From Rubripirellula sp. (GTDB lineage Bacteria > Planctomycetota > Planctomycetia > Pirellulales > Pirellulaceae), in contig OZ244207.1 of the NCBI GenBank assembly GCA_965216875.1, positions 3,808,001 to 3,872,000 on the forward strand: 64,000 bases of DNA. The letters are read 5' to 3'. The notes beneath the pieces were generated by a model that saw nothing but the letters and a program-made list of their open reading frames with translations, ran no database searches and was not told the origin of the DNA. This document shows positions 6,558-10,608 of the stretch, piece by piece. Position 1 is the first letter of the stretch. Every line of letters begins with the position of its first letter. A program made the translations under genes and the position numbers.

Positions 6558-7742
6558 CTAGGCCGATTGGATCGCTTGCTCCAAATCAGCCTGCAAGTCC
6601 TCGGCCGATTCCAATCCGACGGACAATCGAATCAGGCCGTCGGTGATTCCGAATCGGGCTCGATCTTCGGCATCGTAACTGGCGTGCGACATGGTCGCAG
6701 GCTGCTCAATTAGCGACTCGACCGCTCCAAGGCTGACGGCCAAGTGAAACAGCCGCGTCGCCTCGCATGCCTTTGCCGTCTGGTCAATCGTGCCATCGAG
6801 TTCGAAGGTCACCATCGCTCCGAAACCGCCGTCGAGCAGTTTCGACGCGCGATCGTGTTGCGGGTGTTCTGTCAGCCCTGGGTAGAGGACTGACTTGACG
6901 CGTGGATGCGACTGCAGCCACGTCGCAAGTTTCAGTGCCGTTGCCGATTGCTCGCGAATCCGCAAGTCAAGCGTCTTCAAACCACGCGAGACCAAGAAAC
7001 AACTCAGTGGATCGAGGACCGCTCCCGTGGCGTTCTGGATGTAATAGAGCTCGTCGAGCAGTTCTTTCGTCCGAACCGCAAGCGTGCCACCAAGACAGTC
7101 GCTATGGCCACCAAGGTATTTGGTCGCCGAATGCATCACGATGTCAATGTTCTGCTCGATGGGACGCACCAGCGCGGGCGTGCCAAAGGTATTGTCCACT
7201 CCGATCACCGCGCCGCGAGCGTGTGTCACTTCCGCAAGCGCCGCCAAGTCGGGAATCGTCAAACGTGGATTGCCGATCGTTTCGGCCCAGACCAATTTCG
7301 TCTTGTCCGTGATCGCCGCTTCGACGGCCGAGGTGTCGGTCATGTCGACAAGGGTGACCTCGATCCCGCTACGGTCACAGATTTTGTGAAGCAACCGATA
7401 AGCACCACCATACAAATCGCATCCAGCAACCACGTGGTCGCCGGTGCGGAGCATCATCGTGACACAGTGGATCGCAGCCATTCCGGACGAAAAGGCCAAC
7501 GCTCCCGCTGCGCCTTCGAGCGAAGCGAGCGTCGATTGCAGGTTGGTCCGAGTCGGATTGCCGCTGCGCGAATAGTCGAACTCACCCCACTCGCCAGCAC
7601 CTGGTTGGCGAAACGTGCTTGCAAGGTGAATGGGCGGAACGACGGCGCCGGTTGCGGGGTCAATTTCGTTACCGACGTGAATCGCGCGCGTACGAAACGA
7701 TTCGTTGTTGTGGTCGTGACCGCCGCCAGAATTGTCGGTCAT
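6558..7742 (-). CDS. Cys/Met metabolism PLP enzyme (cystathionine beta/gamma-lyase-like)
   Basis: YSRSGNPTR, FSSGMAA, VDNTF, HSATKYLGGHSD, AVSLGAVESL, LIRLSVGLE; ATG overlaps the upstream stop (ATGA). Confidence 0.93.
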   Translation of the reverse strand: MTDNSGGGHDHNNESFRTRAIHVGNEIDPATGAVVPPIHLASTFRQPGAGEWGEFDYSRSGNPTRTNLQSTLASLEGAAGALAFSSGMAAIHCVTMMLRTGDHVVAGCDLYGGAYRLLHKICDRSGIEVTLVDMTDTSAVEAAITDKTKLVWAETIGNPRLTIPDLAALAEVTHARGAVIGVDNTFGTPALVRPIEQNIDIVMHSATKYLGGHSDCLGGTLAVRTKELLDELYYIQNATGAVLDPLSCFLVSRGLKTLDLRIREQSATALKLATWLQSHPRVKSVLYPGLTEHPQHDRASKLLDGGFGAMVTFELDGTIDQTAKACEATRLFHLAVSLGAVESLIEQPATMSHASYDAEDRARFGITDGLIRLSVGLESAEDLQADLEQAIQSA

Positions 7743-9049
7743 GCCTTGAGTGCCTGGTCGAGGTCGCGAATCAAGTCTTCCGGATTTTCGATGCCACAAG
7801 ACATACGAATCATGTTGTCAGGAATCCCAAACCGCTGACGCTCTTCGGGCGTGCAATGGAAGTAGCTCATGATCAACGGCTGCTCGATCAACGTCTCGAC
7901 TCCGCCAAGGCTTGGAGCGATCCGAGCGATCTGAGAACCATCGACAATACGTGAGGTTTCCTTCCAGTCAGCGTCTTTGACCAGGAAGGTGATCAGGCCA
8001 CCAAAGCCCTTCATCTGCGACGCCGCGATGGCGTGCGTCGGATGTGACTTGAGGCCCGGGTAGTAGACCTTTTCAACGCGGGGATGAGCCTCAAGGAACT
8101 CGGCAACACGTTGGCCGTTTTCGTTGTGACGCTGCATCCGCAGTTCGAACGTCTTCAACCCACGTTCGAGCAAGTAGAGGCTGTGGGGCGAATTCACGCT
8201 GCCCAAGATGCCTCGCAATGCACGAACCGGTTCGAGCGCCTCTTTACGGCCCGAGATGACGCCTGCCAACAAATCGTTGTGGCCACCAAGGTATTTCGTG
8301 GCAGAGTGCAGGACGTAATCGACACCGTAATCAACGGGCTTGATGTTGTAAGGCGTCGCAAGCGTCGCATCGATCAACGTTTCGACTTCGTGAGCCTTAC
8401 CAATCGCAACAAACCGCTCCAGATCGACGGCCGTCAAATGAGGGTTGGTCGGCGATTCCGAAACCAGCATCTTGGTCGCCGGGGTGATCGCAGCCTCCAT
8501 CGCATCGAAGTCCCCCGTGGGAACTTGGCGAGTGACGACACCGAAACGCGAGAGGTGCTTGGTGCAGAATTCGCGACTTCGGTGATAGCACTGGTCAAAG
8601 AAAACGATCTCGTCGCCCGCGTTCAAACGACTCATCAACAGCCCGACGATCGCCGCCATCCCACTGCTGTAAAGGATCGCGTCTTCGGCACCATCAAGCG
8701 CGGCAAGCTTCGCCTCGACGCTCTTTTCATTGGGGTTGCCGTAGCGGCCGTACTCTTCGCGTTCTTCCCGTCCCTCGACAAATTCCATCAACGAGTCAGT
8801 CGACTCAAATGTGTACGTCGAGGCGGTAAAGATCGGAGCGGTGATCGAACCTTCCGGCTTCTGTCGGCGTTCGCCCGCGTGAACGCACTGGGTCGACAAA
8901 CCAAGTTCAGAGACTGGTAAGCTCTTCTTTGCCGGACTGTCGTCCGATTTGGGGGGTGAAACAGACTCTTGGAAAGAATCACCAAGGTCAGCATCAGAGG
9001 TGCGACCTGGAGTGGTCGCGTCAGAATCAATAGACATATTCGTTGGCAT
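7739..9049 (-). CDS. metB: Cystathionine gamma-synthase-like PLP enzyme
   Basis: EYGRYGNP, SSGMAA, ESPTNP, HSATKYLGGHND, IAPSLGGVETL, IRMSCGIE; exact specificity is inferred. Confidence 0.85.
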   Translation of the reverse strand: MPTNMSIDSDATTPGRTSDADLGDSFQESVSPPKSDDSPAKKSLPVSELGLSTQCVHAGERRQKPEGSITAPIFTASTYTFESTDSLMEFVEGREEREEYGRYGNPNEKSVEAKLAALDGAEDAILYSSGMAAIVGLLMSRLNAGDEIVFFDQCYHRSREFCTKHLSRFGVVTRQVPTGDFDAMEAAITPATKMLVSESPTNPHLTAVDLERFVAIGKAHEVETLIDATLATPYNIKPVDYGVDYVLHSATKYLGGHNDLLAGVISGRKEALEPVRALRGILGSVNSPHSLYLLERGLKTFELRMQRHNENGQRVAEFLEAHPRVEKVYYPGLKSHPTHAIAASQMKGFGGLITFLVKDADWKETSRIVDGSQIARIAPSLGGVETLIEQPLIMSYFHCTPEERQRFGIPDNMIRMSCGIENPEDLIRDLDQALKA

Positions 9050-9095
9050 GGCTCTTTAGCAGGTTAAGGCTGCAATCGGCCGCAAATCCCTACAA
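9047..9095 (-). promoter_or_regulatory. SAM-II/SAM-V-like riboswitch candidate
   Basis: Minus strand UAGGG-AUUUG-CGGCCGA-UUGCAG-CCUUA-AC-CUGCUAAAGAGCC-AUG; SAM-II hallmarks AUUUG, UUGCA, GCUAAA; directly abuts the start of a Met-biosynthesis operon. Confidence 0.7.
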
Positions 9096-9330
9096 GGGAC
9101 GCGAATTCACGTGTGAATCGTTTGCGTCTGCTCCAAGATTACCCGCCACCAGGCAGATAGACAACCGTTTTCGCCCTTTCCTTTCCGAGTTCGACGATCG
9201 AAGATATGACGAATCAGCCGCATTGCTGTAGTCTCACAAACCGATAAAGCTTTACATCAAACCACAGATCTCCCGTTAAGGCGGGTGATTACAGGCTACA
9301 GTGGAATCGGAAGCCAGCGGCCAACACGGG

Positions 9331-10608
9331 ATGTTCGCAATGAGTCAACCGAAGCGACACAGAATCCTTGCAAGGATTTCGATCACGGCGATCGCCTTTG
9401 TGGTGATCCCGCTGTCGACTCTCGCTCAGACTCCGCCACAGCCATCCCCCACCGAGCTCCCCAAAAGCGATTCCCCAACCCAGCCGCAAGTTGCCCCCCC
9501 AACCGATCGTTCCAAGCCATCAGCCGAAGCCCACCCCACGGCGACCGATGAAGAAATCGAGCAGTGGATCGAAGAGCTTGGCTCGAGTGCGTTTGCCGAT
9601 CGCGAGCGTGCCGCGAGCCGCTTGAGCGAACTGGGGCAAGCCATCATTCCTCGGCTAACCGAACTTGGAAAAGAGCATCATGATCCCGAGGTTCGGATCC
9701 GCGCAAACAAGATCGTTCGTCAGCTGACCGCAGGTGATTTGAACCGTCGCATCGAAGCCTTTCTCTCCGGCAAGGACGTTGGCTTCGAAGGGTGGGACAC
9801 GATCTCGTCCATCTTTGGCGACTCGAATTCGGTACGTGAGATGTTTGTCGAACTGGTGCAAGTTTATCCCGACTTGACCGTCGCCCTCGATGGAACCTCG
9901 CGCGACCGCGCAATGGCGCTCGAGCGTGCCATTGTAACCGTTCGCCAAAAGATGACCCGAGACTTCCCGAGCGTCGCCGACACGATCGCCCTGCTGTTGC
10001 CATCGAGTGACCCCGCCGTTCCACTCAACAACGGTTTCGACGATCTGATGCTGAGCGTGCTGTACAAACCGGCGATCGGAAAGATGTATCGAGACCCCAA
10101 CATGGCGACGCCAACCAAAGTCTTGGTGGGACGTTGGCTGCCTCGCAGCAAACTGAAGAATCGCGAAGAGATTCTGATGTACGGCATGACCAACTCGAAT
10201 CGATACACCTATGACTTGGCGATCAAAACGTTCGAAGAATCGGACGACGCGATGATCCTTGCCTCCGCAATCCAGGCCGTCACCGTTTTTGGCGACGAAG
10301 ACGATGCGGAACGATTGGCCGACTATTTAGACGATGATCGCGTCGTTTCTGAGAACGGTTTCTACAACGGCAAACCACTTCGCGTGGAACTCGGCGACGC
10401 GGCGATGGCTGCGATCGCGCGGCTTCACGATATGTCGCTCAAGCAAGTTGGCTTTCCAACCGAATCGGTCGACGAGCGGTTTGGCTTCGCGCTCAACGAA
10501 ACGGGCTTCATCGTCGGCGACGACGAAAGCCGATCGGCGGCAAGAAAGAAAATCGAAATGTTGGTTCGACCAACCTTTCCAATCGAACCGTTCGACCCGG
10601 TTCAATAA
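9331..10608 (+). CDS. Exported HEAT/helical-repeat hypothetical protein
   Basis: Signal peptide, Pro-rich linker, WIEELGSSAFADRERAASRL helical repeat; start uncertain (9331 or 9340). Confidence 0.8.
   Translation: MFAMSQPKRHRILARISITAIAFVVIPLSTLAQTPPQPSPTELPKSDSPTQPQVAPPTDRSKPSAEAHPTATDEEIEQWIEELGSSAFADRERAASRLSELGQAIIPRLTELGKEHHDPEVRIRANKIVRQLTAGDLNRRIEAFLSGKDVGFEGWDTISSIFGDSNSVREMFVELVQVYPDLTVALDGTSRDRAMALERAIVTVRQKMTRDFPSVADTIALLLPSSDPAVPLNNGFDDLMLSVLYKPAIGKMYRDPNMATPTKVLVGRWLPRSKLKNREEILMYGMTNSNRYTYDLAIKTFEESDDAMILASAIQAVTVFGDEDDAERLADYLDDDRVVSENGFYNGKPLRVELGDAAMAAIARLHDMSLKQVGFPTESVDERFGFALNETGFIVGDDESRSAARKKIEMLVRPTFPIEPFDPVQ

Follow-up and report, generated by a model that had tools for sequence, protein, structure and literature searches.

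A candidate aptamer on the minus strand (9091–9050) of the 64,000-nucleotide stretch of Rubripirellula DNA analysed here (hereafter the window) lies directly 5′ of an operon of cystathionine gamma-synthase-like and cystathionine lyase-like genes. Our results suggest that this element is most likely a real, conserved, miniature riboswitch of the SAM-II class, and we put at roughly 0.8 the probability that a minimal SAM-II-class riboswitch turns the trans-sulfuration operon off at high SAM; that a riboswitch here senses SAM at all is, judged from the sequence comparisons, very probable. An earlier note on this DNA had proposed a compact SAM-II/SAM-V-type pseudoknot before two Cys/Met PLP enzymes, a proposal to which conservation of the orthologous leaders now lends support. 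The leader that it quoted is found on the minus strand at 9092–9047, with the AUG of the ORF 7739–9049 at its end.

A loose SAM-II-type pattern had a single match in the 64 kb window, whereas 100 shuffles gave none. In the predicted fold (all coordinates on the minus strand), the 5′ strand of P1 is AGG (9089–9091; GG in 165 of 165 relatives) and its partner is CCU (9069–9067). The conserved third strand GAUUUG (9083–9088) follows, in which U9086, U9085 and U9084 correspond to SAM-V U8, U9 and U10 when mapped on the accessible parts of PMC6061858 and PMC3764141; three genomes carry an A-to-U variant of this strand. The P2a 5′ strand GGC (9079–9081) pairs with GCC (9052–9050) and also forms the antiterminator core in relatives. 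Next come A9076 (SAM-V A18) and the P2 5′ strand UUGCAG (together 9070–9076), then a 4-nt L3 loop UAAC (9063–9066), whose length varies among relatives, and finally the P2 3′ strand CUGC-U-AAA (9055–9062), with a bulged U9058 equivalent to SAM-V U47 and an A9055 equivalent to SAM-V A50. In SAM-V, as described in the accessible text of PMC6061858, U47 is the partner of the SAM adenine and A50 contacts the amino-acid part. In the same numbering, all SAM-contact positions (i.e. SAM-V U8, U9, U20, U47, A48 and A50) are present, at 9086, 9085, 9074, 9058, 9057 and 9055, and the P2 register is that of SAM-V. These contact bases are kept in all 29 evaluable orthologs picked by protein. The U-A-U triples are possible (U9075/U9074 with A9056/A9057). 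G9088 is to be counted with the third strand and not with P1; it corresponds to G8 of the G8-G42-C23 triple described in PMC3764141. By this predicted ligand-site anatomy the element is a member of the SAM-II/SAM-V class. Folded without pseudoknots, the isolated aptamer is no more stable than its shuffles (z +0.47); P2 is predicted to be formed without ligand (probability 0.95 in the window ensemble).

Conservation in orthologous leaders had been named as a check by the earlier note. Among the best 30 loci of 151 family-level genomes, chosen by protein only, a loose expression of the motif matched 28 leaders; the two misses are an A-to-U variant and a contig end, which gives 29 of 29 evaluable leaders. 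At the order level the pattern matched in 199 of 301 genomes, some of these matches being due to chance. The motif occurs in the majority of the Pirellulales families searched, at rates that differ between them: 48/51, 51/52 and 16/16 genomes in three large families, 20/52 in family f2 and 0/52 in family f114. A scan of the collection returned at least 120 loci; the 80 named among the matches listed all belong to Planctomycetota and include Pirellulaceae, Lacipirellulaceae and Thermoguttaceae. Our own covariance model, built from 104 collection-scan loci, has a single significant copy in this genome and matched 31 of 36 other genomes of the order, but only one, weakly, of 114 genomes of other orders. 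It also matched 14 of 66 genomes that had no pattern match, several of them with long hairpin inserts in L3. The motif was not found in the other Planctomycetia orders searched; phylum-level pattern matches (33 of 401 genomes) mostly look like chance outside Pirellulales, and viral contigs gave no pattern match. Within genomes without a match, the motif is absent upstream of nine orthologous genes, which suggests that some lineages have lost the element or never held it. Where at least 1 kb of downstream DNA was available (123 loci), the motif is on the sense strand ahead of the same enzyme in 122. Searches of this genome with RF00162 and RF01725 gave no match, and the control for RF01725 likewise gave none.

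The conserved P1 consists of two near-invariant G–C pairs and one covarying pair (i.e. 2–3 bp). In the register xGG/CCy, assessed over 165 distinct loci after exclusion of five with a long P1, 57% of third pairs are Watson–Crick (A–U, C–G and U–A forms) versus 39% after shuffling, and the fourth pair is near chance. In the 104-row alignment the two G–C pairs are 98% paired and the third pair is 61% paired with 18 two-sided changes; this third pair is also Watson–Crick in all 11 loci with an altered CC (about seven lineages). One of 12 pairs covaries in this alignment, whose rows include kin that are not independent. Two-sided changes were never seen in P2 and P2a, which are pairable in 99.7–100% of cells; the search patterns fixed many of their bases and so forced much of this invariance, and helices as invariant as these yield no covariation. 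The earlier note had drawn a 5-bp P1 (UAGGG/CCUUA). This genome does allow that register, but across the 165 relatives its added pairs lie at or near the shuffled level, and it is further disfavoured because it would remove G9088 from its triple; the register that is conserved, AGG/CCU, is the one whose third pair covaries. The note's description of an unusually short variant thus holds as to compactness, with a P1 of 2–3 rather than 5 bp and an L3 of 1–8 rather than 2–4 nt.

Of 197 loci, 192 have an aptamer of 38–45 nt; in these 192 the spacer, including the third P1 base, is 2–9 nt long, with AA in only 69 of them. L3 is accordingly tiny and variable, and in seven loci of three families (L215–L220 and L222) it contains hairpin inserts of about 30–95 nt with the core unchanged. 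We count this variation in L3 length and these inserts in favour of an RNA element, because RNA loops behave in this way. In SAM-II folding, the accessible text of PMC12434664 describes the A-minor contacts of L3 to P1 as a critical, rate-limiting step; a P1 of 2–3 bp without such contacts may be unstable.

We then compared the expression platforms. In 139 of 165 loci a -10-like TANNNT ends 8–18 nt ahead of the aptamer, whereas a control window gave 14 of 169; this suggests that transcripts start almost at P1. The typical relative appears to be laid out as promoter, aptamer, hairpin and then intrinsic terminator, and a hairpin with a U tract is present in 58 of 84 long leaders versus 6–11 in shuffles. 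Of 203 motif loci, 160 could be typed, the remainder having too little downstream DNA: 88 are terminator-type, 27 are AUG-type and 45 fit neither class. In 79 of the 88 terminator-type loci the 5′ strand of the terminator is GCCGC-like and complementary to the aptamer segment UUG(C/U)GGC, against a background of 89 among 763 terminator-like hairpins of this genome (12%). The putative antiterminator duplex is better than with shuffled strands in 96 of 104 cases and, of 79 nascent transcripts, 65 give it a probability above 0.5. For full leaders at equilibrium without ligand the terminator is the dominant fold in 60 of 79, so the decision would be kinetic, that is, co-transcriptional. The earlier note had assumed occlusion of the ribosome site as the mechanism. 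This does not generalize: of 165 relatives only 19 have an AUG directly after the aptamer, and a terminator/antiterminator platform is the usual arrangement, in line with the accessible parts of PMC1273637, where SAM-II has a promoter just before P1 and a terminator downstream, and of PMC6061858, where most SAM-II riboswitches are transcriptional.

Two other arrangements were considered for the long leaders and rejected: a Rho-loading signal (there is no C-over-G skew, mean 0.04) and an upstream ORF after the aptamer (an any-frame ATG occurs in only 15 of 84). Several leaders (e.g. L061, L063 and L105) have a variable hairpin and a semi-conserved linker (approximately CAACUUG) between aptamer and terminator, and these may lengthen the antiterminator by base-pairing with the 3′ end of the aptamer. 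The loci of the neither class include L013, L014, L020, L093 and L152, which have no clear intrinsic terminator and no near AUG.

The window itself belongs to an AUG-type subgroup within Pirellulaceae, with a 5′ hairpin, the aptamer and an AUG, and no terminator. Its -10 hexamer TAATCT (9136–9141, minus strand) predicts a start near 9129, upstream of the aptamer, where the earlier note's reading needs it; a weak -35-like TTGTCT (9159–9164), 17 bp from the -10, was found by eye and is absent from the consensus promoter/terminator scan, which reported nothing in the window. A -10 box occurs 35–75 nt upstream (mostly 44–53 nt) in 27 of 31 AUG-type leaders. The predicted 5′ hairpin P0 (9098–9128), with a GACGC/GCGUC base and a variable interior, is typical of this type: z is below 0 against shuffles in 26 of 27 AUG-type leaders and at most -1.5 in 23. 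An anti-P1 hairpin (GUCCCU/AGGGAU, 9086–9100) is exclusive with both P0 and the aptamer, and each of the two hairpins has a probability of about 0.5 in the window ensemble. Both had been pointed out in the earlier note; P0 can form as it described, as can its competing hairpin, although the latter is strong (probability at least 0.8) in only 7 of 27 AUG-type leaders and below 0.3 in 16. A long-range pairing of the 5′ leader with a coding GACGC was also tried and has a probability of 0 in the window ensemble.

The aptamer is intact in all AUG-type loci, with the AUG at most 26 nt away in 27 loci. Among these 27, 7 carry G-to-A substitutions that make the antiterminator weaker (about two lineages), as against none of the 88 terminator-type loci. 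In a 152-row protein tree, 23 of the 27 AUG-type loci fall on one side of a branch with a support of 95; the family-labelled AUG-type loci in this group all belong to the window's family, while the terminator-type loci span many families. Rooting this gene tree with gene 2 gave a branch far too long and an unusable root, so we infer from taxonomic spread that the AUG type is derived.

Gene 1 (7739–9049, minus strand) encodes a Cys/Met PLP enzyme (PF01053) of 436 aa that is most like cystathionine gamma-synthase; its best PDB match is 1i41/1qgn, a plant enzyme, with 336 bits versus 293 for the next. The ATG of gene 2 (6558–7742, minus strand), cystathionine beta/gamma-lyase-like by sequence similarity, overlaps the gene 1 stop (ATGA). 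Neither gene reaches an NCBIfam cut-off, so we infer their activities. The first AUG of gene 1 abuts P2a and a second in-frame AUG lies at 9037; at least one relative (L008) has the first AUG only. No properly spaced Shine–Dalgarno sequence precedes either AUG: the leader offers only AAAGAG, which lies 2 nt from the first AUG and 14 nt from the second. This counts against the ribosome-binding site that the earlier note supposed the pseudoknot to cover. By a crude count, SD-like words precede 582 of 3545 long ORFs of this genome (control 109 of 3480). The product of gene 1 is also extended at its N terminus by about 50 poorly conserved residues (8900–9049). Within this extension, a hairpin at about 9020–9003 loosely resembles an ancestral terminator stem, and we speculate that a former leader may have turned coding. 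A divergent gene (9301–10608) shares the intergenic region with the operon; its 435-aa protein has only a weak HEAT-repeat match.

These observations are consistent with the following mechanism. SAM would bind in the major-groove triplex of P2 (U9058, U9085/U9074/A9057 and A9055), and bound SAM would dock the third strand and thereby lock a pseudoknot that is otherwise held by a P1 of only 2–3 bp. In most Pirellulales, without SAM, UUG(C/U)GGC of the aptamer would pair during transcription with the terminator 5′ strand GCCGC(G/A)A and allow read-through; with SAM, the same segment would be locked in P2a and the terminator would form. In the window's subgroup, the fold locked by SAM would most likely cover about 15 bases ahead of the start codon and so keep the 30S subunit from loading, because the terminator is absent and the AUG lies one base after P2a. 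The balance between P0 and the anti-P1 hairpin would tune the ON state. Control in this genome is thus probably translational, given its order of 5′ hairpin, aptamer and AUG without a terminator, and a steric block of the initiation region is favoured over sequestration of a Shine–Dalgarno sequence because a well-spaced one is absent and SD-like words are scarce genome-wide. An initiation block is the output that we favour with reasonable, though not high, confidence.

We consider it unlikely that the element senses SAM with an output in this subgroup other than an initiation block alone, such as Rho-dependent termination, mRNA decay or an effect that is weak after terminator loss. The missing Shine–Dalgarno sequence, the crude genome-wide scarcity of SD-like words and the 45 of 160 loci that fit neither platform would suit such an output; its difficulty is that the AUG-type leaders have kept the aptamer intact with the AUG close by, together with a conserved promoter and P0. 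It is quite improbable that a SAM-II-derived fold has changed its specificity to SAH, to both ligands or to another sulfur metabolite. Although the P1/L3 scaffold is strongly reduced and the pair opposite SAM-V A50 is C, not A, in about 153 of 165 relatives, the SAM_alpha consensus likewise has C opposite A50, the sulfonium-reading U:A.U triple is intact, as is the U that binds the adenine, and the genes belong to the SAM pathway.

More improbable still is a DNA operator situated immediately after the promoter. A near-invariant sequence 8–18 nt after the -10 box in 139 of 165 loci, the little covariation and the palindrome GCGGCCGC in many relatives are what such an operator could leave. However, many genomes, this one included, have a broken palindrome, spacer length varies between 2 and 94 nt, the distance to the promoter is shifted by 35 nt in the AUG-type subgroup, the complementarity to the terminator needs RNA, and there is a single copy per genome. 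The SAM-binding riboswitch remains the reading that we prefer.

If it is correct, SAM-II-class control extends to Planctomycetota, where the Rfam models miss it, and would explain methionine regulation across a large order of aquatic and soil bacteria. The variant would also be a direct test of how much of the SAM-II scaffold binding needs, since, according to PMC12434664, it is the P1–L3 A-minor motif that limits the rate of folding. Near-identical aptamers with transcriptional and translational outputs would form a natural pair for studying platform evolution, and the compact aptamer would be a small candidate part for SAM biosensors.

Comparison with known SAM riboswitches places the element close to SAM-II and SAM-V yet outside their models. 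The Rfam search suggested in the earlier note gave one weak SAM_alpha (RF00521) match in the window (9036–9100; 13 bits versus a gathering score of 36, E 5.1) and no SAM-V (RF01826) match at E ≤ 10; nothing in the window reached a gathering score. SAM_alpha also gave no match in this genome and none in 18 compact relatives at E ≤ 5. Longer forms in two other Planctomycetota families, with a P1 of 5–6 bp and the same core, score 30–33 bits on SAM_alpha and link the compact variant to SAM-II. Of these, locus L046 (1332–1509, minus strand) carries tandem SAM-II-like aptamers, each followed by a terminator-like hairpin; the second scores 33.1 bits, and the locus shows no evident gene further downstream on the minus strand. 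In L041 (874–1553; also L042–L045), a SAM-II-like aptamer with a 6-bp P1 and a terminator precedes a 173-aa ORF without a Pfam match, possibly an unrecognised methionine- or SAM-related gene.

Like SAM-II (metA and metX; PDB 2QWY), the variant has an H-type pseudoknot with a GAUUU/UUGCA/GCUAAA core, a possible G8-G42-C23 triple and both U-A-U triples, a G–C-rich P2a and methionine genes downstream; most relatives, though not the window's subgroup, also share the promoter just before P1 and the downstream terminator described for SAM-II in the consulted part of PMC1273637. It differs in its P1 (2–3 bp versus 6 in the Rfam consensus), in its L3 (1–8 nt without a conserved A run, versus about 10 nt), in a P2 lengthened by A–U and G–C pairs and in its Pirellulales host. 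With the long-loop SAM-II variant of Bacteroidetes (RF01726) it shares an escape from the main SAM-II model; RF01726 weakly matches the longer forms L041 and L046 (25–27 bits) but none of 18 compact loci, and its host group is another. Like SAM-V (metY; PDB 6FZ0), it has the P2 register from U20:A48 to pair 24:43, the bulged U47, all ligand contacts and, in this genome, a start codon just after P2a, and the L3 hairpin inserts of some relatives recall P3. Unlike SAM-V, it has UUGCA/UGC in place of the lower-P2 letters, a third strand of 6 rather than 7 nt, a P1 of less than 4 bp and a 3-bp P2a without a Shine–Dalgarno sequence, and most of its members are transcriptional.

We found no report of a Planctomycete SAM-II riboswitch, and none of the compact form, in the literature searched, although tables of PMC5473149 outside its accessible part might list such elements. 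As that paper notes, further motifs proposed for met genes have proved to belong to SAM-II; specialists may therefore class the compact form simply as a SAM-II variant. In brief, the variant, which fails the tests of both the RF00521 and RF01826 models and departs from them in P1 and L3, is a new form of the SAM-II class. We lean slightly towards regarding it as a third type within this class: a natural aptamer some 40 nt long in which the binding triplex is retained and the P1–L3 scaffold nearly gone, and whose platform would have been rebuilt within one order, from a terminator/antiterminator to initiation control abutting the AUG, with the hairpin moved upstream and the aptamer almost unchanged.
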